From a virus (lineage: Duplodnaviria; Heunggongvirae; Uroviricota; Caudoviricetes), in the IMG/VR virus record IMGVR_UViG_3300048503_000086: a stretch of DNA of 64,000 bases, one strand, 5' to 3'. A program made the translations under genes and the position numbers. Below the pieces are notes generated by a model. That model was not told the origin of the DNA. It made no database searches and was given only the letters and a program-made list of their open reading frames with translations. The stretch's first letter is position 1, and each line of letters begins with the position of its first letter. Shown here piece after piece: positions 664-42,630 of the stretch.

Positions 664-719
664 TGGTGTAGCTCCAAAAGGAAACTTGGAATAGGTGCGT
701 CAAGCACCAGGCTCACATA

Positions 720-750
720 AAGAGTTGCGAAAACTCTCAAACTGGTTTTA
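720..750 (-). promoter_or_regulatory. Copy 1 of the conserved motif AAGAGTTGC-N13-CTGGTT (candidate phage promoter)
   Basis: Sequence aAAGAGTTGCgaaaactctcaaaCTGGTTtta. Intergenic, about 55 nt upstream of the ATG at 663. Confidence 0.5.
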
Positions 751-797
751 GCGTTCCTCGCTTTTCTTACGGGCGACGCGCCGCTTGCGCGGCTTGG

Positions 798-5345: not shown

Positions 5346-5402
5346 GGTTGCGCTCCCTTGGGGTTAAGTTGCGGGGCAGCCTAGTCCGCGCTCCGCCATA
5401 CC

Positions 5403-5433
5403 AAGAGTTGCGCAATCCTGAAAACTGGTTTTC
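5403..5433 (-). promoter_or_regulatory. Copy 2 of the conserved motif
   Basis: cAAGAGTTGCgcaatcctgaaaaCTGGTTttc. Between the stop at 5437 and the start at 5345. Confidence 0.5.
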
Positions 5434-5436
5434 CGA

Positions 5437-5700
5437 TCAGCGAATTTTGTTGCGTTCGCCGATTACGGCGGCCAGCGAGCGGCAGAGAAGGTCCCAGGCG
5501 AGCAGTCGCTTCCGCGGGAAGCCGAGGATCGTGCCGTGCCGCCAGGGACGGCCTGCTTTGTCCCGCAGGTCCACGAAGTAGTTGCCTACGGCCGGTCCGC
5601 CTGTGCCGAGGTTGGTGATCGTGCCCGTTGCAAGGGTCGTCTTGCGGGCCTCACAGCCGCCGGGCCATAGTTCGATCGTTATCTTCAGCATTACCGGCAC
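5437..5700 (-). CDS. Hypothetical protein (87 aa)
   Basis: ORF track; plausible globular sequence. Confidence 0.45.
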   Translation of the reverse strand: MPVMLKITIELWPGGCEARKTTLATGTITNLGTGGPAVGNYFVDLRDKAGRPWRHGTILGFPRKRLLAWDLLCRSLAAVIGERNKIR

Positions 5701-5709: not shown

Positions 5710-6984
5710 TCATGGCCCCTCCCAGATGGCCCGATGGACGTAGCCGCTGCGGATCAGCCCGTGTTCCGCCGCGATCTTTTCGCAGTAGCCCCTGTCGATC
5801 TCGAAAAGGGAGCAGGGCAGGCCGAGACGTTTACACACTCTCAGCGTTGTCCCCGTACCGGCGAACGGATCGACCACGACGCCCCCGGGCGGCGTCGTCA
5901 GCTTCAGGCACCGTTCGACCAACCCCTCGTTCAGTTGGGTCGGGTGCCACGGGCGGCGCTGCTTGCTGTTGCCCGTCACCCGGGTGAAATTGAAGACATC
6001 GCTTAGCGACAAGTCACCAGTGACGTGCTGCCATGTCTTCCCGTCCTTGATGCTGCGAATGTTGGCCTCCGTGACGCCGTATTGTTTGGCAAGATCGACC
6101 AGGCGGTCGGCTGATTGGTAGATATGGATTACATTTTCGGTTGTCAGTTTCGTCAGTCCATTGGCTTCGCCGGTTGGATGCTGTCCTCGTCGCTTGATTT
6201 CCTTGTCACGGTTGTTGTCTCCATCTGATCCAATGAATAGATGGTTGGGATTACAGCAGCCAGGGTTGTCACAGGTGTGCAATATAAGCTGGCCGATGGG
6301 GTCAACTCCGTGTGTCAGTCGCCACATCAGACGTGTGGCGACGTATAGCTGTTCACCGATGCGAAAGCGGCCGTAACCCGCACGCTTACCGGCAGTCCAC
6401 TCCCAGCAGTTTTCCTCATTGCATCGGTCTATTTTCGCCAGGAACCGTTCAACATCCTGCGCGGTCCAATTCGGCAGCGGCAGTGTATCACGCTCACCGT
6501 AAGCAAAGTGAGCCACATCGCCTGGCACCCGCCCGCGGGGATCAGCACGCTTGTCGCCGTTCTCCTGCCGCCAACTTGGCACGCGGATGGCGTCCGGGTA
6601 GAGCGGGGCGTCGGACCAGCGAAGTCGCAAGAGCGGCCGATGGTTGTTGCCCAGGTCGTGGTGGCTATGCTGACCGAAAGTGAACGTCTGGACGCAGGGC
6701 TTGGCCTCGATCGCGCTGCCGTGCTGGCCCTCGATCTCGGTCACGATGCGGCCTACTTGGAAGGTCCATTTCGCGTTGTAGGAGAGCCATACCGTCTTTG
6801 CCCTCGTGATGAAGCAGTTGAGCCAGCCGCGGAGCAAGTCGATGTAATCGCTCTCGGTGCGACGATCCCTGTAGGTGTCGTAGCCCAGGCCGATGTTGTC
6901 CGGCGGATCGGCGAACAAGGTGTCCACCCGATCTGCCCCGGGCATCCACTCCATGCAGTCAGCATTGACAAGCGAGTATTTCAT
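5710..6984 (-). CDS. Beta-class DNA methyltransferase (N4/N6 family) with an inserted HNH endonuclease domain
   Basis: FADPPDNIG (motif IV) at the N-terminus and VVDPFAGTGTT (motif I) at the C-terminus. Between them: CWEWTAGKRAGYGRF...HTCDNPGCCNPNHLFIGSDGDN (HNH). The true start is the internal ATG at 6984 (MKYSLVNADCMEWM), which overlaps the upstream stop (ATGA). Confidence 0.8.
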   Translation of the reverse strand: MKYSLVNADCMEWMPGADRVDTLFADPPDNIGLGYDTYRDRRTESDYIDLLRGWLNCFITRAKTVWLSYNAKWTFQVGRIVTEIEGQHGSAIEAKPCVQTFTFGQHSHHDLGNNHRPLLRLRWSDAPLYPDAIRVPSWRQENGDKRADPRGRVPGDVAHFAYGERDTLPLPNWTAQDVERFLAKIDRCNEENCWEWTAGKRAGYGRFRIGEQLYVATRLMWRLTHGVDPIGQLILHTCDNPGCCNPNHLFIGSDGDNNRDKEIKRRGQHPTGEANGLTKLTTENVIHIYQSADRLVDLAKQYGVTEANIRSIKDGKTWQHVTGDLSLSDVFNFTRVTGNSKQRRPWHPTQLNEGLVERCLKLTTPPGGVVVDPFAGTGTTLRVCKRLGLPCSLFEIDRGYCEKIAAEHGLIRSGYVHRAIWEGP

Positions 6985-7661
6985 GTTGGGTCCAGTGCGG
7001 TCTCCGGCAGGAAGTAGTGGGAGCCGATGCCCTTGACGTTGAAGATCAGGATCTCTGCGTGAAACTCCACACCGGGGAACGTGTCCAGCGGGAGCGACAC
7101 GATGCTGGTCAGCTTGGCACCGCAATCCCGCAGCCATCGCCAGCGGGTGCTCTTGCGCCGTTGATTGAGGCGCATCCCCATCGGTGCGAACATGACCGTT
7201 GGCGTCCCGTACCCGAACAGCGTGAACGTGTGCTCCAGGAAGACCTCCGGGTACAGCCTCCGGCCGCTGGCCCCGTTGAAGGGCGGATTGCAGAGTACGA
7301 GATCCGGGCGCACCATGTCCGTTTGATCTTCATACCGGCCGTGACAGAACTCATTGCAGTAGGCGCTTCCTCGGTCGTCAATGTCGCAGCCGTAGATGTA
7401 GTGGCCGCCGTTGACCCAAGGGGCGGTCAATCGGCCGGTGCCAATGGCCGGGTCCAGGACAAGATGGAACGAATCCCGGCAGCGACCGCCCCCGGCACAC
7501 GGCCCGCGAGCGGCTCGCAAGGGCCGGGCATTGCACAGCGTTGTGTAAAGGAACTGTGCAACGCTGCTCGGCGTGTAGATGTCGCTCCGCTTCGGGTTGG
7601 CGGTGTAGTCGTTTCGTTTGACGGTCAGCGGGCTCACCATTACTTTGTCTCTTCGGACCAT
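6981..7661 (-). CDS. Gamma-class N6-adenine DNA methyltransferase
   Basis: LDPAIGTGRLT (motif I) precedes LVLCNPPFNGASG (motif IV). Start ATG at 7661, or at 7640 (TAATG coupling). Confidence 0.75.
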   Translation of the reverse strand: MVRRDKVMVSPLTVKRNDYTANPKRSDIYTPSSVAQFLYTTLCNARPLRAARGPCAGGGRCRDSFHLVLDPAIGTGRLTAPWVNGGHYIYGCDIDDRGSAYCNEFCHGRYEDQTDMVRPDLVLCNPPFNGASGRRLYPEVFLEHTFTLFGYGTPTVMFAPMGMRLNQRRKSTRWRWLRDCGAKLTSIVSLPLDTFPGVEFHAEILIFNVKGIGSHYFLPETALDPT

Positions 7662-9029: not shown

Positions 9030-9216
9030 ACCGTCCCTCGCTGTGGCAAGCGTGCCTCGTTGTGCAAATCAGGATGGCGATAAGCGGCCAGACGAAAAGC
9101 GACGGCACCAGGTTCTCGTACCACTCGGTCTTGTAGGTGGCGAACATCGCGTCCGCCTTAACGGTGACGGCGGCACCAATGATCCAAAGGCAGAGCAGGG
9201 CAATGAGCAGGTACAT
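9004..9216 (-). CDS. Small membrane protein (2 TM helices)
   Basis: MYLLIALLCLWIIGAAVTV... Confidence 0.3.
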   Translation of the reverse strand: MYLLIALLCLWIIGAAVTVKADAMFATYKTEWYENLVPSLFVWPLIAILICTTRHACHSEGRYDGREYHY

Positions 9217-9219
9217 GGT

Positions 9220-10221
9220 TCACCATTTCTTCGTGCGGACGCATTCCGCAAAAAAGTCCTCCTTCACCGATCCATCCGACATGAGGCCGCCGGCCATGTT
9301 GTCGAGTACCTCACAACGGGACCGACTTTCTTCGGGGGTCATGTCGGTAAAGACATGGCCGCTGGTAATGGCGGTCCAGCACTGGGCGACCCGCTTCACG
9401 AGGGATTCCTGATGGGCCTTGCTCACGCGACCGCGGTGGTTTGCCACGCGGAGCAGCGGCCTCACGTCGGGGCCCATGTACTTGGCGACGATCTCGTCGA
9501 TCATCAGGACGACGTTCTCATCGCCCACGGCCTCGCCCAAAAGCCAGCCGTAGAGGCAGAGCTGATCGGCGTACTCGTTGTTGCACCCCTCCATGTAGCC
9601 GGAGTTGATTAACAGGCCGTGGTAGTTCATGCCCAGGAAGTTGGCGTGCTCCTTGCAATGGCTGCGGCTCGGCTTGTCAAACAAGTAGCCATCGCGGCAG
9701 AGCATATAGCCCTTGGACGGGCTCGCCCCATACTTGGAGCAGTAGCCGTGGACTTTCCAGTCGAGGATGACGTGGATCGGTCCGTCGCCCAGATCGAGTA
9801 CGAAGCGGCAGTCCGGCTTGCCCAGGAAGGGAGCGCCGCCGATGAGCCCCTCGACCTTGAACTCGAAGCGTGGCGGCTCGATGCTTCTCTGCAAAAGGAC
9901 AAACAACTCCTCGTAGGCCCCGGTCAGCTTGTAGCACTTCCAGATATGCTTGCCGGCCTTCAGGGCGAAGTCGCGGCACTGCGGCTCGACCTGGCTCTCG
10001 AAGATCGTGCCGAACTCGAATTGCGGATTGCTGCTCACGCCGAACAGTTGCGAGTGCAGGGCGGCCTTGACGAAGGCGTCGAAGGCAGACCCTACGGCCA
10101 TCGGCGGCTCCTGTGGCAGGCGCGGTGCGGCCTTGTCCGCCAGGTAGCGCATGTAGAACTCCTCGATGTCCTTCTCGAAGAGGCTGAGGGACGAGTAGCT
10201 GAGGGATCTGGGTGTCTTCAT
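9220..10221 (-). CDS. PD-(D/E)XK-like nuclease (RecB/Cas4-like fold, putative)
   Basis: LDLGDGPIHVILDWKVHGY (D...D/E-x-K pattern); several conserved Cys; 333 aa. Confidence 0.45.
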   Translation of the reverse strand: MKTPRSLSYSSLSLFEKDIEEFYMRYLADKAAPRLPQEPPMAVGSAFDAFVKAALHSQLFGVSSNPQFEFGTIFESQVEPQCRDFALKAGKHIWKCYKLTGAYEELFVLLQRSIEPPRFEFKVEGLIGGAPFLGKPDCRFVLDLGDGPIHVILDWKVHGYCSKYGASPSKGYMLCRDGYLFDKPSRSHCKEHANFLGMNYHGLLINSGYMEGCNNEYADQLCLYGWLLGEAVGDENVVLMIDEIVAKYMGPDVRPLLRVANHRGRVSKAHQESLVKRVAQCWTAITSGHVFTDMTPEESRSRCEVLDNMAGGLMSDGSVKEDFFAECVRTKKW

Positions 10222-10224
10222 GGG

Positions 10225-10644
10225 TCAGGTCCAGAGCAGGCCCCGCAGGGCGATCAGTTTGTGGAGCATCTTGGTGTCGGTCTCGTAGTCGTCAAACTGG
10301 TCGTCGTTCTTACGCTGCCGCCACCAGGAATAGAGCGCCCGCAACTCCTGCCACTCGGTCGCTCGACGGCGGGCCTCTCCTTCGCCACAGTCCAGGTAAA
10401 GCGTGTAAACGTCCTGATGGAAGTGACCTTCTTCCTGGGTCACAAAGTCTTCAAGGATCTGGAAGGCCGCGTAGAGCAGCAGGTGGTCACGGTCGCACCA
10501 GGTCGGCCCCAGGGATTGGCAGACCACGACGTTGTAGCGGTGCCAGAGGCGGCATGTGAGCCAGTACCAGCGGTCGCGCAGCCAGCGCCGGGCGTCTCCC
10601 AACCGCCGCCAAGGGCTCCGCTTTCGCTTTTGTTGCTTGCTCAT
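10225..10644 (-). CDS. Trp-rich hypothetical protein
   Basis: 139 aa. Confidence 0.5.
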   Translation of the reverse strand: MSKQQKRKRSPWRRLGDARRWLRDRWYWLTCRLWHRYNVVVCQSLGPTWCDRDHLLLYAAFQILEDFVTQEEGHFHQDVYTLYLDCGEGEARRRATEWQELRALYSWWRQRKNDDQFDDYETDTKMLHKLIALRGLLWT

Positions 10645-10958
10645 GGCTTGTTGGGAGGTTTGGATGCGATCCCGGAGTCGGGCCTGGACTCGGGTTCAGC
10701 CGGCGGCTTGACCTTGGGCTCGACCGGCTTGATCTCGGGCTCGATTGGCTCGATCCTGGGCTCGGCCGGCGGCAGCGGCGCTGGCTCCGTGTCAGGCGGC
10801 AGCGGGAGCCGCAGTACCTCCCAGTTACCCGTGGTCGAAGGTGGCTGTGGAGCCGGTCGAATGGCCGGCTTGCCCATGACAATGGCCGCTGCGATCAAGG
10901 CCGACATCGCCATGAGGCCGAGCAGGATGCTGAGGGGGTTGTCGTTGTTCCGGTTCAT
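10641..10958 (-). CDS. Membrane-anchored protein with a Pro/Glu-rich repeat tail
   Basis: Internal ATG at 10958: MNRNNDNPLSILLGLMAMSALIAAAIV then EPRIEPIEPEIKPVEPKVKPPAEPE. The sequence upstream of this ATG is RG-rich off-frame translation. Confidence 0.5.
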   Translation of the reverse strand: MNRNNDNPLSILLGLMAMSALIAAAIVMGKPAIRPAPQPPSTTGNWEVLRLPLPPDTEPAPLPPAEPRIEPIEPEIKPVEPKVKPPAEPESRPDSGIASKPPNKP

Positions 10959-11602
10959 GTTGGCATTCCAGGTGGTGAGAAGATTCCCGTGAAGGCGGTG
11001 GCGTCCGACCAGAACTCTTTGAGGTGCGGAAGCCCGACTTTCAGGATGCAGCAGCCGCGGAGCCAGTTGAGGAGACCCTCGGGCGTGAGAACGTGGGGGT
11101 GGCAGTCGTCCGCCGGGATGTAGAGCCACTCGAAGATGCGCAGGACGCCGTGGGGCGAGACGCAGGCGACAGCATTGGCTACGACCTTGGCCGGGTCCTG
11201 GACGTGCTGGAGCACGTTGTACAGCCACACCTCGTCGAACAGGGCGTTGCCGAGGTGTTGGCTGCCCAGGGCCTCGCCCGGGGCCTGGATAAACTCGATC
11301 TTGTAGTTGGCGTATCGCCTGTGAACTGAAGGCGGCCATTCGCAGGGGTCCGCCACAACCAACCGCTTCGCACCAATGCAACGGAGCGTCATGCTGATAG
11401 GCCCTCCGCCTACGTCCAGGACGGTCTTGCCCGGCATATACAGCTCACCATTGAGTGTGCCGTAGTCCTCGAACAGTCTCATTTCGCGGCCGTACATTTC
11501 GCCTTTGCAGAACTCGCCCCAGGCCGTCATTCCCTGGCAAGTTCCCCAGTATTGCTTCTCGTGTTTCTGGGCTTCTTGCCAGCGGGTATTGGATTCAGCC
11601 AT
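10955..11602 (-). CDS. Class I SAM-dependent methyltransferase (substrate unknown)
   Basis: VLDVGGGPISMT (SAM-binding motif I). GGAGAA ribosome-binding site. Confidence 0.7.
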   Translation of the reverse strand: MAESNTRWQEAQKHEKQYWGTCQGMTAWGEFCKGEMYGREMRLFEDYGTLNGELYMPGKTVLDVGGGPISMTLRCIGAKRLVVADPCEWPPSVHRRYANYKIEFIQAPGEALGSQHLGNALFDEVWLYNVLQHVQDPAKVVANAVACVSPHGVLRIFEWLYIPADDCHPHVLTPEGLLNWLRGCCILKVGLPHLKEFWSDATAFTGIFSPPGMPT

Positions 11603-12539: not shown

Positions 12540-12757
12540 GGTCGTCGAGCCTTTCCAAAGGGGATTTGATGCCACAGTCGTTCGTGGAAGTAGAACAGGA
12601 TCAGCTTCACGATGAAGCAGATGAGGGTGAACACGGCACAGCCGCCCACGTTGCCAAACATGGCGAAAGCCAAGGCGAAGCAGACAAGGTTGCTGAAAGT
12701 TTCCCAAGTCAGTGCCTTGGCGACGGTACGCTTTGGTGCGCTAGGGTCGGGCTTCAT
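12536..12757 (-). CDS. Small membrane protein (2 TM helices)
   Basis: MKPDPSAPKRTVAKALTWETFSNLVCFALAFAMFGNVGGCAVFTLICFIV. GAGGGAAG ribosome-binding site. Confidence 0.5.
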   Translation of the reverse strand: MKPDPSAPKRTVAKALTWETFSNLVCFALAFAMFGNVGGCAVFTLICFIVKLILFYFHERLWHQIPFGKARRP

Positions 12758-13374
12758 TTCTTCCCTCGCTTCACGGCTCGCTTGGTAGCCAGGGGCTTCT
12801 TCCGGCCGATGTACCGGCTTGCGGACTCGACGCAAGGTTTTCCCATCCAGTTGAAGAAGTACCAGCGGTTGAGCCGGTCGATCACCGGGTCGTGGTCGAT
12901 GTGCCGCAGGTAGGTCTTCACTTCGTCCCACGTCGAGAAGATCATCTCGAAGGGGAGCGTGCCGAAGAGCCAATCCGGGCAGTTCTCGATGCCCTGAGCC
13001 ACGCGAACGAGGATGGGCTTCTTTTCCCGGTTGGCCAGGAACAACTCTTCGTAGGTGCCCGTTGCGTGAACTTGCAGGTCGATGTTCACGATCAGGAAGT
13101 CGGCCACGTCCACCATCCGCAGATCGACCGGGCGAATCTGCTTCATCTGGTTGCGGACGAACTCGAAGTCGCCGGATCGCTTCGCCTTGTGGCGCAGTTC
13201 GCGGTTTTCCAGGTCTTCGACGCCGATGTCGATGGGCTTTCGGCACGGGTCGAGCCAGAGGATGTTCAGGTCGCTCAACGAGTCGATCAGGTCTTGACGC
13301 CAGCCGATGCCGCCGTCAATCACGCGGTCCATTGCCCCGCACAGGTAGCCCCGGTTCAGGGCCAGCCGGTTCAT
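12754..13374 (-). CDS. Nucleoside 2-deoxyribosyltransferase-like protein
   Basis: MNRLALNRGYLCGAMD...HATGTYEELFLA resembles the deoxyribosyltransferase fold (P-loop-like N-terminus, catalytic Glu). Internal ATG at 13374. Confidence 0.45.
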   Translation of the reverse strand: MNRLALNRGYLCGAMDRVIDGGIGWRQDLIDSLSDLNILWLDPCRKPIDIGVEDLENRELRHKAKRSGDFEFVRNQMKQIRPVDLRMVDVADFLIVNIDLQVHATGTYEELFLANREKKPILVRVAQGIENCPDWLFGTLPFEMIFSTWDEVKTYLRHIDHDPVIDRLNRWYFFNWMGKPCVESASRYIGRKKPLATKRAVKRGKK

Positions 13375-13400: not shown

Positions 13401-14096
13401 TCACGGGAGCAATTCCTGGAACTTGGACGAGCCGATGCGAGTGCAACCCATGTCCAGGTAACGGACTGCATCAGCGTGAGTGTTGATCCCGCCGCTGGCC
13501 TTGACTCCGCACCGATATTCGCCCCCTACGGCGTCGAGCATGATCTGCACCACGTCTGGGGTTGCTCCGTGCGGGGCGAAGCCGGTCGAGGTCTTGATGT
13601 AATCCACGCCGCAATCAGCGCACAGGCGGGAGGCGTCCCTGATCTGGGTCGGCGTGTAATAGCAAGTCTCCAAAATGGCTTTGACGATCGCCCCTCGCGG
13701 GCGGGCCTCGGCGACGATGCGGGTCAACTCCGTTCTTATTGGGCCCGGGTCGCCATCCAGGAGCCGGCCGTAGTTGACCACTACGTCGATCTCCTTCGCC
13801 CCGGAACCCATTGCCTCCACGGCCTCCACCGTCTTGGTAAACGGAGTGGTGTTGCCGTGCGGGAAACCGACAACAGCACACACTCGGTCCGTATAAAGAG
13901 TTGCAAAAGAGACAAAACTGGTTGGGACGCAGACGGATTTTATTCCGTAGCGGCTCACCATCTCGCAGGCTGCGCGCACCTCGGCCGCCGTTGCGGTGGG
14001 CTTCAACACTGCCAGGTCCAGGGAATCGGCAATGCGCTTTACAGCGGTTGAGCGGTCGTCGGGTGTGGCTTCAGGCTTGATCTGACTGTTGTTCAT
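13401..14096 (-). CDS. deoC: Deoxyribose-phosphate aldolase
   Basis: Motifs GFPHG, EIDVVVNY, VKAILETC, VKASGGI. Aligns along its full length to class I DeoC enzymes of about 220 aa. Confidence 0.85.
   Translation of the reverse strand: MNNSQIKPEATPDDRSTAVKRIADSLDLAVLKPTATAAEVRAACEMVSRYGIKSVCVPTSFVSFATLYTDRVCAVVGFPHGNTTPFTKTVEAVEAMGSGAKEIDVVVNYGRLLDGDPGPIRTELTRIVAEARPRGAIVKAILETCYYTPTQIRDASRLCADCGVDYIKTSTGFAPHGATPDVVQIMLDAVGGEYRCGVKASGGINTHADAVRYLDMGCTRIGSSKFQELLP
13896..13926 (-). promoter_or_regulatory. Copy 3 of the conserved motif, embedded in-frame inside deoC
   Basis: aAAGAGTTGCaaaagagacaaaaCTGGTTggg. Encodes ...PTSFVSFATLYT... in a variable DeoC loop. Confidence 0.45.
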
Positions 14097-14165: not shown

Positions 14166-14924
14166 TCAGAAGTTGGTGAAGAGAATCTCGACCTTGTTGC
14201 TGCACTCGCCCCGGCGCTCGCAGGCTCCCCGACGGGGTGTGTCCCGCGCGATCCGGTTCCAATGTGGGTAGCAACACGCAGCCGCTAGCGACTCGGACAC
14301 GATCACCTTGGCACTGGCCGAGTTCAGCAATTCGACCATTGCCGGATAGTCAACGCGGTAGCGGTACTCGTCCTCGTGGCCCACGTAGGGTGGATCGACG
14401 TAGATCAGGGCCTCGGAGTCGTTGTAGACCCGCTGGATTGCGGCCAGTGCGTCCTCGTGCAGCAGCGCGACCCCGCGCATCCGGTTGGCGGCCGGGAGCA
14501 CCCGTTGGAACCAATCGGCCCAGACTTCCTGCTTCGGCTTGTGCGGGGCCGGGCACTTGTCCAGCGACCATGTGGAAGAATTGCCATTGCCGCAGTAGAA
14601 CTGTGCGCCCTGCGCCATCAGCAGCACCGCCTGGTCGATGTCGCCCACTGGCCGCTGCCGCCAGTTGGCGGCCGTATAGGGCGTGGCCCACAACAGCGCC
14701 GCCAGTTGCTCGGGTTGCGATTTGATGGCCCGCCACATGCCCATGACCACCTCGTCCAGATCGTTAACGATCTCAACGAATGACCGCGGCTTGGCCAACA
14801 GCACGGCGGCCGAGGCGCAGCACGGCTCCATGTAAACCCGGTGCTGCGGGAAGTGGGAGACGATCCACTTGGCGATGGACGCCTTGCCGCCATATTGGCG
14901 ATAGGTGATCTTGGGCGTGGCCAT
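14166..14924 (-). CDS. dam: Dam-family (alpha-class) DNA adenine methyltransferase
   Basis: N-terminal YGGK motif and IYVDPPYVG (DPPY). Confidence 0.85.
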   Translation of the reverse strand: MATPKITYRQYGGKASIAKWIVSHFPQHRVYMEPCCASAAVLLAKPRSFVEIVNDLDEVVMGMWRAIKSQPEQLAALLWATPYTAANWRQRPVGDIDQAVLLMAQGAQFYCGNGNSSTWSLDKCPAPHKPKQEVWADWFQRVLPAANRMRGVALLHEDALAAIQRVYNDSEALIYVDPPYVGHEDEYRYRVDYPAMVELLNSASAKVIVSESLAAACCYPHWNRIARDTPRRGACERRGECSNKVEILFTNF

Positions 14925-15307
14925 CAGTCTTCGTCGCCCTCTTCCTTGGCAACGATGTCTAATGCCTCCCCCATCAGGTACTCGGCCGCCAGGGCTCCGG
15001 CCTTCTCGACGAGGACGGCGGCCCAGTGGACGATCAAAGGCTGGTCGTCGTTCAGCTTGGCCTCCTCCAAAGTGACCAGGGCTTCCAGGACCAACTTGCC
15101 TTTCTTGGTGAGATGGCCGTCATCCAGGGCGTGGGCGTCGTTTTCCTCTTCCTGGAGGGTCAGGATATTCTCCAGGGTGGCCTCAAGCTGGGCGTCCTGT
15201 GACTCCGTGGCAGCGGCCCCGCAGCCGTTACGTTGCTTCATTGCCTCCAAGAGTCCCTGGGCCTTCGTCCAAAGCTGGATCACTTCGCGTAAGGTCGCTT
15301 TATTCAT
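14924..15307 (-). CDS. Acidic hypothetical protein
   Basis: Internal ATG at 15307: MNKATLREVIQLWTKAQ... Its stop and the Dam start overlap (TGATG). Confidence 0.5.
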   Translation of the reverse strand: MNKATLREVIQLWTKAQGLLEAMKQRNGCGAAATESQDAQLEATLENILTLQEEENDAHALDDGHLTKKGKLVLEALVTLEEAKLNDDQPLIVHWAAVLVEKAGALAAEYLMGEALDIVAKEEGDED

Positions 15308-15893
15308 GGCTCGCCTCAAAGGTGAAAGTGGAGTCGATCTGGTTTCCCCATTGATCCCAGCCTGGCCGCGGCCTGCGGGCAAACAGTTCCAGGTAAGGCC
15401 CGGGGCTCTGCTCTTCGATCAGGTCGTAGAAGAAATCGGGCTTGACGCTGTGCGGTGCCCGCGGCAACAAGTAGGCTGTCGGCCGGCACGGGCCCGCCAG
15501 ACGCAGGCTTCCACGCACTGCGAACAGAAGATGCTCTGTCGCACTGCGGTAGTAGTAGCCGGTCTTCATCGACGGGCTGCCGTCCGCCTTCACCTTCACC
15601 CAGGTCAGCACCGTCTTGGGAACAAAGCCCCAGGCCCCTACAATCTCATGTGCTTCAACCAGGAACGAGTTGGTGGTCCACAGGTACAGGTGGGCGGCAT
15701 TTACTGCCGCCTCTCGCACCGGCAGGGCTTCGATCTCGCGGATGGACATGCTGCCGTAGCGGCCGGCAGAACTCACCGAGCCGGTCACTTTGTTCCAACT
15801 ATTCGGCCGATGGCCTGGAGCAGCCCGTGGACCGTCCACGTTGTCGTAGGGCCACGGCGGGTCGGCGTAGATGGTGCTATACATGGTGGCCAT
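15300..15893 (-). CDS. MT-A70 family N6-adenine methyltransferase
   Basis: IYADPPWPY (DPPW motif). Internal ATG about 15893. Confidence 0.8.
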   Translation of the reverse strand: MATMYSTIYADPPWPYDNVDGPRAAPGHRPNSWNKVTGSVSSAGRYGSMSIREIEALPVREAAVNAAHLYLWTTNSFLVEAHEIVGAWGFVPKTVLTWVKVKADGSPSMKTGYYYRSATEHLLFAVRGSLRLAGPCRPTAYLLPRAPHSVKPDFFYDLIEEQSPGPYLELFARRPRPGWDQWGNQIDSTFTFEASHE

Positions 15894-15894
15894 G

Positions 15895-16125
15895 TCAAAG
15901 TTGCATCGCGCTCTTGTAGTAGCAGGCAGGGCACAGGACAACCGGCGTGTCATCGTCAGCGATGTTGGCGTCAAAGGGATCGGCAATCGGGATGGCATCG
16001 ACGCCAATTAGCAGGGCTCCGCAGTCCCGGCAGCAGCCCTCCAGGTCGCGGAGGTCGATCCAAACGCAGCGGAAGGCCGCCGGATCGGCTTCGTACCCCA
16101 GGTAGGCCAGCTCGCCCTTTTCCAC
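15895..16125 (-). CDS. Small zinc-ribbon protein (paralog A)
   Basis: GTG start preceded by AGGAGG. GCCRDCG...CPAC. Paralogous to 16127-16375. Confidence 0.5.
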   Translation of the reverse strand: MEKGELAYLGYEADPAAFRCVWIDLRDLEGCCRDCGALLIGVDAIPIADPFDANIADDDTPVVLCPACYYKSAMQL

Positions 16126-16747: not shown

Positions 16748-16766
16748 GCCACATCCCTGCCCAATA

Positions 16767-16797
16767 AAGAGTTGCAAAACACGGTTAACTGGTTTTC
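16767..16797 (-). promoter_or_regulatory. Copy 4 of the conserved motif
   Basis: aAAGAGTTGCaaaacacggttaaCTGGTTttc, about 20 nt upstream of the ATG at 16747. Confidence 0.5.
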
Positions 16798-16938
16798 AGC
16801 GGCTTGCGAATTCTCACTGCCTTGTAGCTGTCGTACAGAACGCCCCCTTCAGCGAGCAGTGCTGTAACGCTCGGGCATTTTCCTTGCCGTAGGCCAGTAA
16901 CACCGATGGGCCGCCGGCGTTGCCCTTGCCTGTCTTCG

Positions 16939-17921
16939 TCATAGGGCGACTTGCTGAGTTCTTTGGATTCGTTGAAGGGCTTGCTCGTACACGGCCTGGT
17001 TGATCTCGGCGGCAAATGCCATTCGGCCGGCTTCCCCCGCCGCAATCGAGGCGGTGCAAAGGCCGCCGAACGGCTCCCACACCACGTCGCCCGGGTCCGA
17101 GCAACTTTTCACGAGCAACTGCATGAGTGCGAGCGGCTTCTGGTTGGGATGGACCACGCTGCCCTGGACCTTGATCCGTTCCTTGCCGCGCACCGCCGGG
17201 ACGTGCCAGACGTTGGTTACCCCGGCTTCACAGTGAAACTTCCCGCGAAGCTGCTCCCACTGTGAAGCCGCAAGGCTCGTCTCGCCGTCAACCGAAAAAT
17301 AGGGACGGCCCGAGGGGTCGCCGTGCGTGTTGGCGTAGTCCACCAGCCGTTGGAACACGTCGGGCGGCGGGAAGTACCACAGATAATCGCTGGTGAGATA
17401 CTTGCGAGTGGCGGCGTTCTTCACGCCGCACGCCTCGTTCGACTTGGCGAGAGGCAGTCCGGTCCGCCGCCATTCCGCCCGGAGCCACTGCTGGGCAGAA
17501 AGCGGAGAGTCCGCGGCGGTCAATCGGAACTGGGGTTGCCGGACGTAGTGGACGCATACCTCGGTGACAACGGGGAACTTCCGCAGCGTTTGCGTGTTCG
17601 TGTTGCCGGCGACGTGGGCCAGACCCTTGTCCCAGACGCAGCACGCCGGTAAATCCAGCCCGCGTCCCGCAGGACGGGGTGGACTTCCGCCCAGCCGACC
17701 TCCGTGTTCCATAACCAAAGCGTCGTGCTCGCGGTAGCACGGCGGGTCCATGCCGCAACGTGCGGCTCGTACCACTGGCGGAGTTGCTCCGGCCGTGCGA
17801 GGTCGCCGTCGTAGCCGCTGAGACCGTAGGGTCCATCGGAAACGATGAGCGCCGGCGAGTCCCACTGATCGTAGAAGATCAGCGCGTCCCCACGGCAGAG
17901 ATGGATCAAGGCGTCATTCAT
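16939..17921 (-). pseudogene. Beta-class N4/N6 DNA methyltransferase split by a frameshift near 17640-17655
   Basis: N-terminal part (frame of ORF 17520-18038): MNDALIH...SDGPYGLSGYDGD...TLWLWNTEVGW. C-terminal part (frame of ORF 16939-17865): ...CVWDKG...HPNQKPLALMQLLVKSCSDPGDVVWEPFGGLCTAS. The two frames overlap about 135 nt with no stop. Confidence 0.6.
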
Positions 17922-19096: not shown

Positions 19097-20060
19097 TCTT
19101 CAGGGGCTTGCGGCAGGCTTCCAGGAAATTGCCGACAGCCTCACCGTCAAAGAAGAGGCCATTGTTCGACAGGTCCTTGGCGAGCCATGTGCCAACGCCG
19201 TGCAGCCGGCGGCCGGCGGCCATGTGCTCTGTCACACGGCTCACGGCGCGGTGCGCGGCACCGGTGCCGCCCGTTTTGCAAGACATGCTGAGGTAGAACA
19301 GGAGCAGGAAGTTCGTCGGCTTGCCGTTGCACTCGTTGTCGAGCATGTCGAGGGCAACTTGGGCGATCTGCTTCTCGTTGTCACCGACGAGCACTCGCAG
19401 GACGACGTTGTAGCTCTCGGAGAGCTTCTCGGTCAGGTCCTTGTAAGTGGCGCACTCCCAGCAGAGCAGCGACCTGAAGGCTTTCAAGGCCCCGCCCTGC
19501 GCATCGCGGTCGCTCTGAAACCACTTGATCGCGCCCGGCTTCTTCTGCCCTTCCAGTTTCACCAGCAGCCCCCCGCCGCGCGTCACACGCGCACGGGCTG
19601 CGTCCTCGGAGCAGCCTTGCAGCTCCGCAATCTCCTTGTAGCTCAGACCGTGCTCGTGGTGCAGCCGGTGGGCGTTGGCCGCGTGCTCCTTCAGCGTGTG
19701 TCCGCGCTGAGTCAGTTGCTTGTTGTTGTCCGTGAGAGAGATGTACTGGGCATTCCTCAGCGCGTTCGGGCCCTTGACAATATCAACATTGAGTCGCTCC
19801 CATCCGAGCTTGATAGCTCCGCACCTGCGTCCGAGGCCGGCGGGAATGTAGTTCACGCCATCCTCCTGGTAAACGACGATGTTGTTGGCGAAGTCCGTCC
19901 TCCCGTCAGCGAGGCAGGCCCTTGCGATTTCGTCGCCGCGGACCTTGGCGTTGTCGTGCTCCCGAGTCTGGAAGCGCGTGCTGGGGGAAAGATCGGAGAC
20001 GAGCATCTCCTGCGTTTCAACAGTGATGTGGCGGTTGCCAAAACGTCGTTTCATGGTCAA
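19086..20060 (-). CDS. ParB-like nuclease-domain protein with C-terminal sigma-region-4-like HTH
   Basis: YIPAGLGRRCGAIKLGWERLNVDIV; LSYKEIAELQGCSEDAARARVTRG. Confidence 0.65.
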   Translation of the reverse strand: MTMKRRFGNRHITVETQEMLVSDLSPSTRFQTREHDNAKVRGDEIARACLADGRTDFANNIVVYQEDGVNYIPAGLGRRCGAIKLGWERLNVDIVKGPNALRNAQYISLTDNNKQLTQRGHTLKEHAANAHRLHHEHGLSYKEIAELQGCSEDAARARVTRGGGLLVKLEGQKKPGAIKWFQSDRDAQGGALKAFRSLLCWECATYKDLTEKLSESYNVVLRVLVGDNEKQIAQVALDMLDNECNGKPTNFLLLFYLSMSCKTGGTGAAHRAVSRVTEHMAAGRRLHGVGTWLAKDLSNNGLFFDGEAVGNFLEACRKPLKIRA

Positions 20061-20105
20061 GAACTCCAGCTAAAATGTGAGGGGAGAGTGAGAGTGAGAG
20101 TGCGA

Positions 20106-20594
20106 TCAGCAGTCGGTAAGCTCGCCGGGAAGACGCTTGCCATTCCAAGGTGCCGAGTTAATGAGCCCCCTGGCATCCGCGTAGTTGTACTTGGCATCGC
20201 GGGGTACATCGTTCTCTGGGACAAAGGCATAGGTGATGCGCGGCGCTGCGGTGACATCGACCAAGAGGAAGCCGTCAAGCAGTTGCCGCGCATACTGGTA
20301 CTCCAGCTTATCGAACTTACGCCGGGTGCCGTTCTGCTTGTGCGGGTTCAAGGCGGTCCCATTCGCCGTGACCATACGGACCTGGAAGACGTAATCACCT
20401 TTGGCAATGCAGTCGCGGGGGTAGTCGGGGTCGCGGTTACGCTTCAGATCGCTGAACCGCCCCAGCAGATGCTCGAAGACAAGGAACGCAGCGGCACGCC
20501 CGTCACGGAGCGTTTGGGCCAGTCGTTTCTGGCTTACGCAGCCGAAGGCCACAGGCAGCTCGTCCGTGTAAATCGTGTCCAGCTTGAATCTCAT
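20106..20594 (-). CDS. Hypothetical protein, translationally coupled (ATGA) to the upstream gamma-class methyltransferase; speculative restriction-endonuclease partner
   Basis: 162 aa, no recognisable motif. Position and size are consistent with a small Type II endonuclease. Confidence 0.45.
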   Translation of the reverse strand: MRFKLDTIYTDELPVAFGCVSQKRLAQTLRDGRAAAFLVFEHLLGRFSDLKRNRDPDYPRDCIAKGDYVFQVRMVTANGTALNPHKQNGTRRKFDKLEYQYARQLLDGFLLVDVTAAPRITYAFVPENDVPRDAKYNYADARGLINSAPWNGKRLPGELTDC

Positions 20595-23247: not shown

Positions 23248-23621
23248 TCGCAACCCCTCTTGGTTGACTGCCCTTGTCCAAATAAAGAGTTGCAAAATAC
23301 GGCCAACTGGTTTTCAGCGTTACTCGCATTTTCAGCCGTGCCGACTCTAGGCGATGGCCTCACCTCTGGCCTGAACTCCGGCTTGGGCTCTGGGCGGGGC
23401 CCTGGTTCAGGCCACTTGGGGTGCGGAATCCGGTGCTTAGCGAGCAGGTCTTCACACCGGCGAATGTATTCGTCGCGCACACCCAGGGCACGTTGCAGAC
23501 TGTCAGCCGTTTCGCAGACCGCGATGAACCCTTCATGCTCCCGGGCGATCTCCCGGGCGTGGTCGATCTCCGCCAGGACGACAAACGCAAGCACTAGGAC
23601 GAGGATCAAGATTCTCTGCAT
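23184..23621 (-). CDS. Signal-peptide / Pro-rich protein. The 3' extent is uncertain because the ORF runs through motif copy 5 and the small gene at 23086-23247.
   Basis: MQRILILVLVLAFVVLAEIDHAREIAREHEGF... then PEPGPRPEPKPEFRPEVRP. Confidence 0.3.
   Translation of the reverse strand: MQRILILVLVLAFVVLAEIDHAREIAREHEGFIAVCETADSLQRALGVRDEYIRRCEDLLAKHRIPHPKWPEPGPRPEPKPEFRPEVRPSPRVGTAENASNAENQLAVFCNSLFGQGQSTKRGCECRRSNSSAPATWNMPLGAPV
23285..23315 (-). promoter_or_regulatory. Copy 5 of the conserved motif
   Basis: aAAGAGTTGCaaaatacggccaaCTGGTTttc. Confidence 0.5.
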
Positions 23622-24217
23622 GACTTGTGCTCTCTTTGATAAGCCAGTAGCCGGCCGAAACACTCAACCAGATAGAGGGACGTGCAGGAATGCCCCAGCC
23701 TGTTCCAGGGGCGCGGCACCAGGACGACGTGACCATCATTGCCGGGCTGCTCGAAGAGATCCGTATTCGCCTCACTATCGTCTACCAGCAGGGCGTCGGG
23801 GCGCGCGAAGAGCCATTTGCGGGGTGTGATGGCGTACTGCCGGTGCATCCACGGCGGGAAGTGCTTCTGAATCCACTGGACCTTGCCGGCCGCACAATCA
23901 GGGTCTTTCGTGGGACTGGTGGCAATGATGATGTTCTCCCGCCCGACCAGCCGCTCGCATTGCTCCAGCAGCCAGGGGAACTCCGGCGTCTCCGGCACGG
24001 AAGCCCAGTCGTCTCGCGTGAACGACTGCCAGAACGAGGGCCGAGTGAACCGCTTCTCGCCCAGCAGCCGATTGGCGATGTCGGCAAGATCAAACACCGA
24101 GCCTGCGGGCAGATCGCCGTAATCCGTAGGACTGACCTTGCAGCCCACAAGCGTCAGGAAGTACATGGACAGCGTATTGCACACGTCGTCCAGGTCGAGG
24201 TAGATTCGGCGGATCAT
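23606..24217 (-). CDS. 5'(3')-deoxyribonucleotidase (NT5C / HAD-like)
   Basis: IYLDLDDV (HAD motif I, DxDxV); LLVDDS. Confidence 0.7.
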   Translation of the reverse strand: MIRRIYLDLDDVCNTLSMYFLTLVGCKVSPTDYGDLPAGSVFDLADIANRLLGEKRFTRPSFWQSFTRDDWASVPETPEFPWLLEQCERLVGRENIIIATSPTKDPDCAAGKVQWIQKHFPPWMHRQYAITPRKWLFARPDALLVDDSEANTDLFEQPGNDGHVVLVPRPWNRLGHSCTSLYLVECFGRLLAYQREHKSCRES

Positions 24218-24924
24218 TTGCTGCCCTTCTTGATATGCCTTAACTCGGCCTTGGCCAGCGTGCGTTGGTACAGCCCTTCCTTCATGCGGTACGTGGAAGC
24301 CAGCGACATGCCGATGGCATCCGCAATCTCTTGCAGCGAGTAGCCGGCCTCACGCATTTCGACGTAGGTTCGCTCCTCCTGGCGGCAACAGCAGGATGCG
24401 ATCAGATCACGCATCTCCAAGACGGAATCGTCGCCGTCGCAAAGAGATGTCTCAGGCAAGATGCCGGAAGGCAGCATCGCCTTGATCCGCTTGCCATTGG
24501 CCGTCGCCTTCCACTGCGTCCCATGCGGGATGCGGATCATGGGTTCCGCCTCGGCAAATTGTCCCAAGCGGGAGGCAACCGCCACGCCGATGTACTCGAC
24601 AGGCGCAGTGACGCCGCACCCTTTCTCCGCCATGAGGTTTACAGCCGCCACCAGGCCCATGAAGCCGACACTTGTCAGATCATCCCGCAAATAGCCGTAC
24701 TCGGGAAAATCGCGGATGTAGGCACTCACTTTTGACACAACCAGCGGCATGTTGCCCTCAATCATCTGGCGACGTGCTTCCAAATCGCCCGCCGCCACCC
24801 TCGGCGCAAGCGCCAGATTGCCCTCTGTGCTCAGCGGCGGGGTCATCTGGGAAATGAGTTCAGTGTTGTATTGGCTCACGATCACTCTTTCGGAAGGAGA
24901 ATGGCGTCCATGCGCCAGGCGCAC
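24214..24924 (-). CDS. Sigma-70-family RNA polymerase sigma factor
   Basis: Region 2: AAGDLEARRQMIEGNMPLVVSKVSAYIRDF...LRDDLTSVGFMGLVAAVNLM. Region 4 HTH: YSLQEIADAIGMSLASTYRMKEGLYQRTLAKAEL. Confidence 0.8.
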   Translation of the reverse strand: MRLAHGRHSPSERVIVSQYNTELISQMTPPLSTEGNLALAPRVAAGDLEARRQMIEGNMPLVVSKVSAYIRDFPEYGYLRDDLTSVGFMGLVAAVNLMAEKGCGVTAPVEYIGVAVASRLGQFAEAEPMIRIPHGTQWKATANGKRIKAMLPSGILPETSLCDGDDSVLEMRDLIASCCCRQEERTYVEMREAGYSLQEIADAIGMSLASTYRMKEGLYQRTLAKAELRHIKKGSK

Positions 24925-28769: not shown

Positions 28770-29147
28770 CTAGAACACGTCGTAGGTCCAGCCGGGGCCG
28801 ATGACACTGGCCGCAATGACAGGAGCGGACATCAAGTTGCCGTTGCGAAAGCGTATGAACATCTGAAGCGTTCGGCCGATCCAGGCGTCCAGGCCGACGT
28901 TGGCATCCAGGGCATAGACGCCTCGTAGGTACTGGCCCACGGTGGACTCCCGTAGGAGGGGCAAGGTGCTGCTCACTTCCACCAGACCGGAAGCGGGGTT
29001 GAGTACGGTGATCTCGAAGAGGTGGTTATCAGTCTCAACCATGATCTTGGTGCCCTTCCTTTGCCGTGTCAGGTCGATTCCTGGCTGGGCTTTCAGGGCC
29101 TTGAGAGCTTCTTCAGGGGTCGGCAGTGCAGGCATCATTCGCTCCAC
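28770..29147 (-). CDS. Hypothetical protein
   Basis: Probable ATG at 29138 (MMPALPTPEE...) with GGAGCGA ribosome-binding site. Lies immediately downstream of motif copy 6. Confidence 0.5.
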   Translation of the reverse strand: MERMMPALPTPEEALKALKAQPGIDLTRQRKGTKIMVETDNHLFEITVLNPASGLVEVSSTLPLLRESTVGQYLRGVYALDANVGLDAWIGRTLQMFIRFRNGNLMSAPVIAASVIGPGWTYDVF

Positions 29148-29148
29148 A

Positions 29149-30012
29149 TTAAGAGTTGCAAAACGACCCTTTCTGGTTTTCCTCTTCGATGTCTTTTATC
29201 AACGCGGCGTCGTCAATCTCAGCCATCGCCCAGGCCAGCGCCCGGGTAGCCAGCCCGTTGACCCCAGCCTCAAACATTCTGAGGATCATCGCATTGATCT
29301 GCTCTTTGGTGCGGCGAAACCGGAAGCGACGCTTGTACGTTTCATCGAGTCCCGGCAACTTGCCGCTCGATCCCCGCCGCCGGGCCTCCGCCGTTTTCTC
29401 GGCAAGGAACAACTGCTCCTCCGGCGCTTCCTTGTACAGCCGCTCGATCGAGACCTGCGACAAGAGGCCGTTGGCAGCCATCTCTTGGATTTCGACCGGG
29501 AGATCCAGCAGCCGGAAGCGTGCCGCAATCCACTTCGTGGGCCGATGCAATTCCTTATTGGCCTGCCGAAGCGACACGCCGTCAGGGTACAGACGCTTGA
29601 GCGCGATGGCCTCTTGCAGCATGTTCAGGTCTTTACGCTCCAGATTCTCCGTGAAGTTGAGCAGGCGGGCCTGGTAGTCCGTCAACTCGTGTCGGACCAT
29701 CGCCGGAATGTTTGCCCACTTCAGAAAGAACTCGACCGCTCGAAATCGCCGGTGGCCGGCAATCAGGCGATAGTCAAAACCCGAAGGCACAGTGCCCACG
29801 ACCTCGACCGTGGGCTGCACCACGACGGGAAAATCGAGGCCCCTTAGCTCGACACCCCCTCCCTTTTGGCGAATGCTCTCGGCCAATTCCGAGACCGACT
29901 CCAGCGTGAACTGCCCTCGGCAGTTGAAATCGGCATCGTAGTAGATGCGGCTCAACGGCAGAGCGAACACGTCATATTCCTGGAGTCTCTCCGCCACCGG
30001 CCGTCTCCCCAA
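29149..30012 (-). CDS. ParB/Spo0J-family protein
   Basis: YRLIAGHRRFRAVEF (the GHRRxxA ParB box) plus a downstream HTH region. Confidence 0.75.
   Translation of the reverse strand: MGRRPVAERLQEYDVFALPLSRIYYDADFNCRGQFTLESVSELAESIRQKGGGVELRGLDFPVVVQPTVEVVGTVPSGFDYRLIAGHRRFRAVEFFLKWANIPAMVRHELTDYQARLLNFTENLERKDLNMLQEAIALKRLYPDGVSLRQANKELHRPTKWIAARFRLLDLPVEIQEMAANGLLSQVSIERLYKEAPEEQLFLAEKTAEARRRGSSGKLPGLDETYKRRFRFRRTKEQINAMILRMFEAGVNGLATRALAWAMAEIDDAALIKDIEEENQKGSFCNS
29151..29181 (-). promoter_or_regulatory. Copy 6 of the conserved motif. It overlaps the stop codon of the upstream parB-like gene.
   Basis: tAAGAGTTGCaaaacgaccctttCTGGTTttc. Confidence 0.5.
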
Positions 30013-36235: not shown

Positions 36236-36277
36236 GTTGCAAGGCTCCAGATGCAGGGTTTGGACTTCACGCGGGTT

Positions 36278-36590
36278 TCACACGAGAGCGGTGTCCCGCT
36301 CGACTTCAAGCAGGCTGTCGTATTCGGGGGCCAGCCGAGAAATCAGGGCCTCGTAGAGGATGTCGCCCAAGAGTTCGGCGTCAGACGATTCGCTGCCCAC
36401 CTCTACGTGAACAACCAGGCAGACGCCTTCGTCATGCTCACCGTCGTCGGGAAGCCTGAAGCTGACCGCCTCCACGCGATCCCAGGGGCGACCGTAGAAA
36501 GCTCGCTTCAGGAGCAAGTAATGACGGCGCGAGTCGGGTTGACCTTCCAGTAGCCGTGGTACAGCCGCAGGTCGTAAGTCATGCGGTTCA
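36278..36590 (-). pseudogene. Small hypothetical protein with a 1-nt frameshift near 36520
   Basis: MNRMTYDLRLYHGYWKVNPTR in one frame, then HYLLLKRAFYGRPWDRVEAV... in the next. Confidence 0.3.
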
Positions 36591-36639
36591 TGTCCGGTAC
36601 TCCTCGAACTCGCCTTCTTTCGTGGCGGCGTCGTCCCAA

Positions 36640-39600: not shown

Positions 39601-39792
39601 CACACGCGGGCAATGGCCCGCCAATACTCGGGTCCGGGAACCTCGTGGTCCCAGTCCTTCTCCATGAAGCTGAGTCCGTAGGGCGGGTCCGTCACCACGA
39701 AGTCCACCGCACGCCTCGGGCAAGGCCGGCAGCACATCGCGCAGATCGCCGTCGTAGAGGGCGATGTTGCCGTCTGTGTGGTAAGGTCTCAA
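36640..39792 (-). pseudogene. Remnant of a large fusion of a beta-class DNA methyltransferase with an SNF2-family helicase (resembling the P1 anti-restriction protein DarB), broken by several frameshifts
   Basis: Pieces in different frames: MRPYHTDGNIALYDGDLRDVLPALPEA | AVDFVVTDPPYG...NIDASRI | SRFFYCAKA...HPTVKPLALMEY...ILDPFAGSGTT | AAEMGTGKT (helicase motif I) | MSGTPSPKTPVDWWSQ (SNF2 motif III region) | LLDENEETGRIVVFAGFTGSVDRIV (helicase C). Confidence 0.5.
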
Positions 39793-39842
39793 GGATCGCC
39801 TTTCGTGGCTGTCGAGCAGGCCAATGCGTTGAACGCCACATC

Positions 39843-39873
39843 AAGAGTTGCAAAACGCAGAAAACTGGTTTGG
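39843..39873 (-). promoter_or_regulatory. Copy 7 of the conserved motif
   Basis: cAAGAGTTGCaaaacgcagaaaaCTGGTTtgg, upstream of the methyltransferase-helicase remnant. Confidence 0.5.
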
Positions 39874-39879
39874 CCGACC

Positions 39880-42494: not shown

Positions 42495-42496
42495 CT

Positions 42497-42590: not shown

Positions 42591-42630
42591 AGCTATGCCA
42601 CCGACTTCCACGCCGGCTCTCAGCGCCGGA

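Follow-up and report, generated by a model that had tools for sequence, protein, structure and literature searches.

The deoC locus and the element it contains

The window analysed here is a stretch of 64,000 nucleotides from a virus of the class Caudoviricetes (IMG/VR record IMGVR_UViG_3300048503_000086), and the subject of the analysis is a short promoter-like element located within the coding sequence of its deoC gene, which encodes a protein of the deoxyribose-phosphate aldolase family. The gene, the parts of the element and the first gene downstream of it are as follows.

13401..14096, minus strand: deoC, deoxyribose-phosphate aldolase family, 231 aa, the gene that hosts the element (assigned through PF01791)
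13934..13943, minus strand: upstream A-tract ATAAAATCCG of the element, covering the rare codons ATA-AAA and then TCC-G (I52 K53 S54 V55)
13893..13923, minus strand: core of the promoter-like element, from the third base of codon 58 to codon 68
13918-13923, then a 13-nt spacer, then 13896-13904 and 13893-13895, minus strand: the parts of that core, AACCAG, GCAACTCTT and TAT, respectively
13888..13892, minus strand: putative transcription start zone, at most about 5 nt past CTCTT-TAT, placed by analogy with the motif copy at 29143-29202
12754..13374, minus strand: first gene downstream of the element, with a weak match to Nuc_deoxyri_tr2 that lies below the Pfam cut-off

The product of deoC belongs to the DeoC/LacD family of aldolases (Pfam PF01791, E = 7.7e-15, residues 29-211, 55.6 bits against a cut-off of 23.8), and the catalytic columns D104, K168 and K199 are invariant among its homologues in a 25-sequence alignment, in agreement with a preliminary description of the window that had taken the gene for a class I aldolase. 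The gene at 12754..13374 is followed by a DUF2061 gene and a SEC-C-motif gene with no intergenic gaps. In relatives of the phage the packing is equally tight, as deoC overlaps both of its neighbours (9174-10016, 10001-10750 and 10747-11391 in the related locus L016) and the genes are contiguous through the SEC-C-motif gene, leaving no intergenic room around deoC.

The 31-mer AAAGAGTTGCAAAAGAGACAAAACTGGTTGG occupies positions 13895-13925 of the plus strand, inside the minus-strand open reading frame (ORF) of deoC, and encodes residues P58-T69 (PTSFVSFATLYT). The preliminary description had rightly recognized a motif copy in this gene, while placing its start one base too far along, at 13896, and its codons at about 55-68. 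It had also spelled the motif out on the strand opposite to the genes; biologically, it is the reverse complement that matters. In this orientation, the motif consists of an A-tract followed by AACCAG-N13-GCAACTCTT-tAT, and the deoC site is the ninth copy of it in the window. The deoC copy deviates from the others by having CCAACCAG in place of AAAACCAG, a difference correctly noted before as GTTGG rather than GTTTT on the opposite strand, and it retains the invariant AACCAG. Its A-tract corresponds to the (A)AAA..CG element that precedes AACCAG by about 15 nt in the intergenic copies.

The codons that carry the element are unusual for this genome. Within IKSVCVPTSFVSFATLY, A or T occupies the third position in 11 of the 17 codons, where the genome averages 3.2 per 17 codons, and the codon-choice likelihood of the segment falls in the lowest 0.3% of 14,839 windows of 17 codons. 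The motif recurs in the window and is rich in A/T against the high GC content of the genome, and it had been proposed that it is a short mobile element, inserted in-frame into a tolerant loop of DeoC. This proposal was rejected and is almost certainly wrong, as neither the 120 best DeoC homologues nor a set of 24 aligned homologues have a gap or insertion over residues 55-75, and the motif shows neither terminal repeats nor pairing. The segment corresponds, residue for residue, to the VCV-xx-xx-V-xx-A stretch usual in the family, and on the evidence of this alignment it is recoded and not inserted. The loop that the preliminary description wished to see compared among orthologues is thus of normal length, and what is anomalous is its content, namely T59 and the A/T-ending codons. 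Residue 59 is Pro in 98 of the 120 homologues and Thr in the window, where the ACC codon provides the central bases of AACCAG.

A family of co-oriented motif copies in the window

Searches of the window with the full 29-mer and with the internal 14-mer TTGCAAAAGAGACA returned the deoC site itself as the sole match, and the motif family surfaced only through k-mer sharing of the flank AAGAGTTGCAAAA. Besides the deoC site, it comprises the following eight copies.

712-771, minus strand: intergenic motif copy
5395-5454, minus strand: intergenic motif copy, the nearest one past deoC in the direction of transcription, at a distance of 8.5 kb
16759-16818, minus strand: intergenic motif copy, the next one upstream of deoC, 2.9 kb away
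23277-23336, minus strand: intergenic motif copy upstream of a small ORF and a DNA ligase gene, at a position conserved in relatives
29143-29202, minus strand: motif copy over the last approximately 11 codons and the TAA stop of a ParB-like gene (29149..30012)
39835-39894, minus strand: intergenic motif copy
46998-47057, plus strand: intergenic motif copy in a plus-strand gene block, its orientation flipped together with the genes
54095-54154, minus strand: intergenic motif copy upstream of a gene of 1088 aa

When the nine sites are aligned on the gene strand, they share one layout: an A-tract, about 10-15 nt, (G)AAAACCAG(TT), seven variable bases and TTTTGCAACTCTT-tAT-gtGG. The spacing of the two conserved blocks, AACCAG-N13-GCAACTCT or lineage variants thereof, is identical in all copies of the window and in the four lineages described below. 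A weight matrix trained on the eight non-deoC copies only, with which both strands of the 64 kb were scored, gave the deoC site 31 bits over 60 nt and 39 bits over the 41-nt core, within the range of the leave-one-out scores of the other eight (16.6-53.1 bits); in the same scan no further position on either strand exceeded 5 bits. By our own arithmetic, the chance expectation of a score of at least 31 bits in 128,000 positions is about 6e-5.

The placement of the copies follows transcription. A crude gene map based on GC content at third codon positions (GC3) has minus-strand genes at 0.8-42.5 kb and 50.2-63.2 kb and plus-strand genes at 43.4-49.8 kb. Each of the nine copies points in the direction of the genes around it, the sole plus-strand copy among them. 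Eight of the nine lie immediately upstream of genes, with the next start codon 13-106 nt past CTCTT; the deoC copy lies 450-520 nt upstream of the start of the next gene. The copy at 29143-29202 is a second case, besides deoC, in which the motif overlaps coding sequence. There, the GGAG of the downstream gene begins 6 nt past CTCTT and its ATG 13 nt past it, and therefore a transcript containing this ribosome-binding site would have to begin within about 5 nt of the conserved block. A total of 11.4 kb of minus-strand genes lies between the copies at 16759-16818 and 5395-5454, which the deoC copy divides into 2.9 and 8.5 kb.

Other readings of the motif were considered and set aside. The nine copies yielded no consensus RNA structure (zero consensus pairs, no inverted repeat, the motif being asymmetric), and neither an Rfam family nor a tRNA was matched, which discards a terminator or other structured RNA. 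By inspection, the motif has no GG-N10-GC as sigma-54 promoters do, and no TTGACA/TATAAT at proper spacing as in canonical sigma-70 promoters; on the gene strand between 11 and 18 kb, no sigma-70-consensus promoter and no intrinsic terminator was found. The anatomy of the motif, as far as can be judged from its layout, is that of a phage-specific promoter.

A repeated motif of this kind could also serve as the binding site of some other phage protein, such as a repressor or activator, a ParB-like protein or an anti-termination factor, and not as a promoter at all. Three ParB-like genes are present, and parS sites often lie inside genes. This explanation is nonetheless improbable, given that the motif lacks the palindrome of parS-type sites, that it is strictly co-oriented with transcription and placed directly upstream of start codons, and that its two blocks keep a fixed spacing as in sigma-dependent promoters.

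Lineage variants of the element in related phages

Comparison of the 12-18 kb region with GenBank phages by megablast returned nothing, and tblastn with the DNA polymerase gave remote matches only (<30% identity), with no close cultured phage. Relatives were found among uncultured sequences. In a 113.8-kb IMG/VR contig (L001), DeoC is 94% identical to that of the window and the element is kept, its sole change falling within the variable spacer. An exact-protein look-up led to further syntenic lineages (L016-L019 with L026, L020-L022, and L023), the DeoC of which is 67-68% identical to that of the window. The exact DeoC protein is also present on JGI metagenome contigs.

The four lineages, with DeoC proteins 67-85% identical, all retain the element at the same deoC codons, each in its own version, and in each of them the version inside deoC is the one found between its genes. 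In the window and L001, at least eight intergenic copies read GCAACTCTT, as does the deoC copy. In the L016 lineage, all six intergenic copies (from L016 and IMGVR_3300038456_000063) read GCAACTCTC, and the deoC copy reads GCAACTCTC. The L020 lineage has ACGACTCTC both in the intergenic position and in deoC, where the peptide F-A-T-L has become F-T-T-L (Ala65 to Thr). Finally, L023 has two intergenic copies with ACGTCTCTC and the same ACGTCTCTC in deoC, with the peptide F-T-S-L (Thr66 to Ser). Residue 65 is Ala in 115 of the 120 homologues (96%), and the four sequences with Thr carry the Thr65 codon of the ACG-type lineages L020 and L023. A gene for a ribosomal protein S21 homologue lies just upstream of deoC in L023 (9638-9826; precomputed Pfam label).

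Codon conservation adds to this picture. Among codons for which the amino acid is invariant across the four lineages, the rare codons ATA, AAA, TCC, AGT and TTT are retained at 5 of 11 positions in the element, against 3 of 107 elsewhere (Fisher p = 1.3e-4). In about 30 other syntenic phages, the DeoC of which is 45-60% identical, deoC is devoid of the motif and has GC-rich codons in its place: A/T-ending codons number 0-3 of 13, the genomes having about 61-64% GC, and the residues are those of the family consensus, AP..V..A. In one of them, L037, the peptide is PSSFV, similar to PTSFV of the window, yet it is encoded by GC-rich codons without a motif in deoC; the promoter motif TTTACGACTCTCTATGTG occurs twice in L037 outside deoC, once at about 0.95 kb upstream of that gene. 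The preliminary description had envisaged that motif-less relatives might carry an identical loop, which would have pointed to convergent codon usage, and what they carry there instead is different residues and GC-rich codons.

These comparisons bear on the suspicion that the deoC copy is a non-functional look-alike, arising by chance from the peptide and codon usage or persisting as a decaying relic. Since the adjoining VCV...V..A is conserved in the family, some DNA identity is expected, and a test for identical codons at invariant residues was not significant (7 of 11 in the element against 47 of 107 elsewhere, p = 0.18), a test that is uninformative because the strong GC3 bias makes codons identical everywhere. 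The look-alike explanation is very unlikely in view of the low chance expectation given above, of the rare codons retained in four lineages and of amino acids that depart from the family consensus exactly where the motif requires it. Furthermore, the deoC site follows the variant of each genome, while outgroups with similar peptides, such as L037, lack the motif.

A candidate sigma factor and the question of the polymerase

The following features bear on how the motif may be read.

24214..24924, minus strand: sigma-70-family factor of 236 aa, candidate reader of the motif (assigned by profile comparison with PDB)
L037, positions 1422 and 9048; L020, position 1585; also L080 and L083: T7-core-like variant TTTACGACTCTCTATG of the motif

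The product of 24214..24924 gives only weak Pfam matches (HTH/Sigma70_ECF), and standard Pfam thresholds miss its identity as a sigma factor. When a profile built from this protein and four orthologues was compared with PDB, it matched SigF (1L0O_C, E = 3e-11) as well as numerous entries for SigA, RpoS and RpoD, the matches covering region 2 and, weakly, region 4. The gene adjoins NT5C and ligase genes, an arrangement conserved in more than 30 related loci. A copy 94% identical to it lies at the end (the last 5.9 kb) of a 698.7-kb contig of a Pirellulales metagenome-assembled genome (L141, CAWJKP010000005.1), and weaker relatives occur in metagenome-assembled genomes of Planctomycetaceae, Planctomycetia and Thermoguttaceae (L142-L145). 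The Pirellulales copy suggests a planctomycete host, and may reflect integration or else a join made in binning or assembly.

The relationships among the sigma factors differ from those among the DeoC proteins. L016 and L020 have DeoC proteins 85% identical and sigma factors only 58% identical, while the closer sigma pairs, window with L016 (64%) and L020 with L023 (73%), correspond to the GCAA and ACG groups of -10 variants. Judged by these identities, the promoter variants track sigma relatedness and not DeoC relatedness. The helix that aligns with sigma-70 region 2.4 separates the two groups, with differences at the same positions (..S/C-R/Q-L-G/I-Q-F.. vs ..R-E-L-G-E-L..). Region 2.4 of sigma factors contacts the upstream end of the -10 element, and by extension the same contact may be made by the phage protein. 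A co-evolving DNA-binding protein of another kind would also give co-variation between intergenic and deoC copies, as expected of a binding site, but the variants follow the sigma gene.

The most likely reader of the motif is the host RNA polymerase together with the phage sigma factor, because GAAAAC-N17-C(G/A)(A/T)C with its upstream A-tract resembles promoters of the extracytoplasmic function (ECF) or group-3 type with a UP element. The alternative is that the motif, including the deoC copy, is a promoter read by a phage single-subunit RNA polymerase of the T7 type. The downstream block extends to the probable start site, as in T7-type promoters, and promoters of this type encode specificity where the lineage differences fall. 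In addition, the variant TTTACGACTCTCTATG of L020 and L037 is the same at 12 of 13 positions as the T7 promoter core, TAATACGACTCACTATAG; the variant of the window itself agrees with that core at only 8 of 13. No RNA polymerase family was matched (Pfam, PHROGs) among 36 window proteins, a set that comprises all ORFs of at least about 137 aa in the gene map and leaves out smaller ORFs and the 36.2-39.1 kb region, and tblastn with T7 RNA polymerase gave no match in the window or across 1.8 Mb of related loci. The window covers only part of the genome, as the 113.8-kb contig of its relative indicates, and the negative result covers the window and the related loci, so that a T7-type enzyme encoded beyond the window is a minor rival. 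The element moreover has two parts, as the block is preceded at 13 nt by the invariant AACCAG and further up by the A-tract, both of which T7-type promoters lack, and a conserved sigma gene is present. A T7-like reader is therefore considered unlikely.

Proposed explanation

The reading preferred here, with a probability of roughly 70%, is that the deoC element is a functional internal promoter of the phage's own type that drives the genes downstream, as the preliminary description had suggested as one of its two options; positional conservation, rare-codon retention and co-variation with the intergenic variants all argue for it. In this proposal, positions 13888-13947 of the minus strand would be a working ninth promoter copy, written into deoC codons 52-69. 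The A-tract ATAAAATCCG would be placed like a UP element, AACCAG would act as a -35-like block followed by the fixed spacer of 13 nt, and (T)TTTGCAACTCTT-TAT would form a long -10-like block, with initiation a few nucleotides past TAT, at about 13889-13892. Host RNA polymerase carrying the phage-encoded sigma factor would read this promoter, and the transcripts would run over the last two thirds of deoC into the Ndt-like gene, the DUF2061 gene, the SEC-C-motif gene and onward. This downstream block has no other promoter copy for 8.5 kb, and we infer that the element supplies its transcription from inside deoC. Because the same bases encode both protein and promoter, the sequence of the DeoC helix would be shaped by the promoter, and a change in promoter specificity would bring about changes in codons and in some amino acids.

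A wider proposal, which we regard as tentative and rather doubtful, is that the embedded promoter has been retargeted at each change of the sigma module, so that switches of specificity lead directly to the replacement of amino acids in a viral enzyme. The sigma/promoter system in which this would happen, that of planctomycete-associated phages with a -10 block near-identical to the T7 core, would not have been described before. The deoC-internal sites of L016 and L020 differ at exactly the bases that distinguish their promoters, at the cost of an Ala that is 96% conserved.

Several points weigh against the internal-promoter reading. The phage is uncultured, and the element is known here from sequence alone. 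The deoC copy lacks both an A-run 5' of AACCAG and a GTGG-like start region, and in the leave-one-out comparison it scores lower than six of the eight intergenic copies; for these reasons it may be weaker than most copies. The identical-codon test was not significant, and for lineage C the contig carries just one intergenic copy. As the four lineages share ancestry, their co-variation amounts to roughly three evolutionary changes; concerted evolution of the repeats by gene conversion is also formally admissible. Finally, the link between sigma factor and motif is circumstantial, and the ACGACTCTCTATG variant, with 12 of 13 positions of the T7 promoter core, hints at a different polymerase.

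An in-frame GTG (deoC codon 72, position 13883, minus strand) lies 13 nt past CTCTT, with GGA before it. If the internal promoter is active, its transcript might give a DeoC of 160 aa truncated at its N-terminus, or might couple translation to the next gene. The truncated product is not favoured, as it would be missing the first two barrel strands.

Comparison with known systems

Promoters inside coding sequences and phage sigma factors with private promoters are kinds of system already known. The nearest parallel is the FliA (sigma-28)-dependent motA promoter, which lies inside flhC in gamma-proteobacteria, constrains two residues of FlhC and has an intergenic location in those species in which the two residues are variable (Fitzgerald, Smith, Lapierre and Wade; bioRxiv 10.1101/188474). 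In both cases, a promoter of alternative-sigma type for a downstream gene would lie inside the upstream coding sequence, with residues constrained by it and the constraint gone where the promoter is absent. The differences are that deoC is a metabolic enzyme gene of a phage, that the consensus varies by lineage and the embedded copy follows it with changes of amino acids, and that the flhC/motA promoter was experimentally tested, whereas that of deoC is a prediction from genomic data.

Phage sigma factors with their own middle or late promoter consensus include gp28 and gp33/34 of SPO1, gp55 of T4 and gp36 of phiEco32. The likeness to the present case consists in a sigma-70-family protein and a phage-specific motif, unlike the host consensus, repeated before gene blocks. 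The SPO1 sigma cascade is mentioned in PMC13401047. The sigma factor of the window differs from these in belonging to a new, uncharacterised family of planctomycete-associated phages, in resembling SigF, SigA and RpoS only at the profile level, and in that its pairing with the motif is presumptive.

Promoters of the ECF type follow the pattern AAC-N16/17-CGxC, as for sigma-X, sigma-W and sigma-M of B. subtilis. The phage motif is similar, with GAAAAC-N17 followed by CGAC in L020, CGTC in L023 and CAAC in the window, and a probable start about 7 nt further on. The phage sigma factor differs in keeping an 'IRIP' segment resembling region 3.0 and in its length of about 230 aa, which is closer to group 3, and the conserved CTCT(T/C) after the -10 core of the motif has no ECF counterpart. 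As for promoters of T7-type single-subunit RNA polymerases, some of them lie inside T7 coding sequences; they are likewise phage-specific, about 20 nt long and abut the start site, and they have the core ACGACTC.CTAT in common with the variants of L020 and L037. Here the differences are that no such polymerase was found in the window or the related loci, and that the window element has extra upstream blocks and is accompanied by a sigma gene.

What the deoC case would add to these known kinds is a consensus that varies by lineage and is tracked by the embedded copy even where conserved residues are lost to it. Confirmation of the start site would make the locus a clean natural viral example of one DNA stretch with two codes, an arrangement known before but seldom documented so clearly, in which the promoter code prevails over protein conservation (P59 lost, A65 replaced) and follows the sigma type. 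The analysis also provides a promoter consensus and a candidate sigma factor by which transcription units could be annotated in an uncultured, Planctomycetota-linked family of phages, and it cautions that odd residues or codon usage within viral genes can flag regulatory signals.

Further observations on the outgroups and the window

In the outgroup phages L024 and L025, a relocated promoter was sought in the spacer between the DUF2061 and SEC-C genes, and the similarity was too weak to claim one. An element of about 60 nt is conserved in that spacer between L024 (11544-11697) and L025 (11999-12166), and the motif-bearing clade does not have it. These outgroups also show a leader, GTCTGAGAC.CTG(C/T)GCC(C)ATG, directly before several genes (L024, 794-834 and 8075-8165; L025, 2265-2316 and 8890-8993), and L025 carries an IS605 OrfB/Cas12f-like TnpB gene (19439-20311; precomputed Pfam label).

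Within the window, the region 36242-39084 has no clean ORF and contains long overlapping ORFs in different frames with helicase-like and methylase-like peptide fragments; frameshifts, a degraded gene or the weakness of the crude gene map are possible reasons. The divergent region between the minus-strand and plus-strand gene blocks, at 42493-42700, holds a long inverted repeat with the arms ACAACTACACCTACAGGAGATGTCA and TGACATCTCCTGTAGGTGTAGCT around a spacer of about 50 nt rich in A/T runs, followed by two direct copies of AGCGTGTAAACGCATCTATC and by an HNH-like ORF (about 42706-43398, plus strand); the region could be an origin or a regulatory region.

DNA methyltransferase genes are unusually many (1063-1599, 5710-7137, 14166-14924, 15300-16007, 16939-17865 and 39084-39737, all on the minus strand), with Dam, N6_N4 fused to HNH, D12-class, MT-A70 and other types among them. 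They co-occur with the NT5C nucleotidase (23606-24217), DeoC (13401-14096) and the Ndt-like gene (12754-13374), a load of genes that suggests extensive DNA modification and deoxynucleotide salvage.

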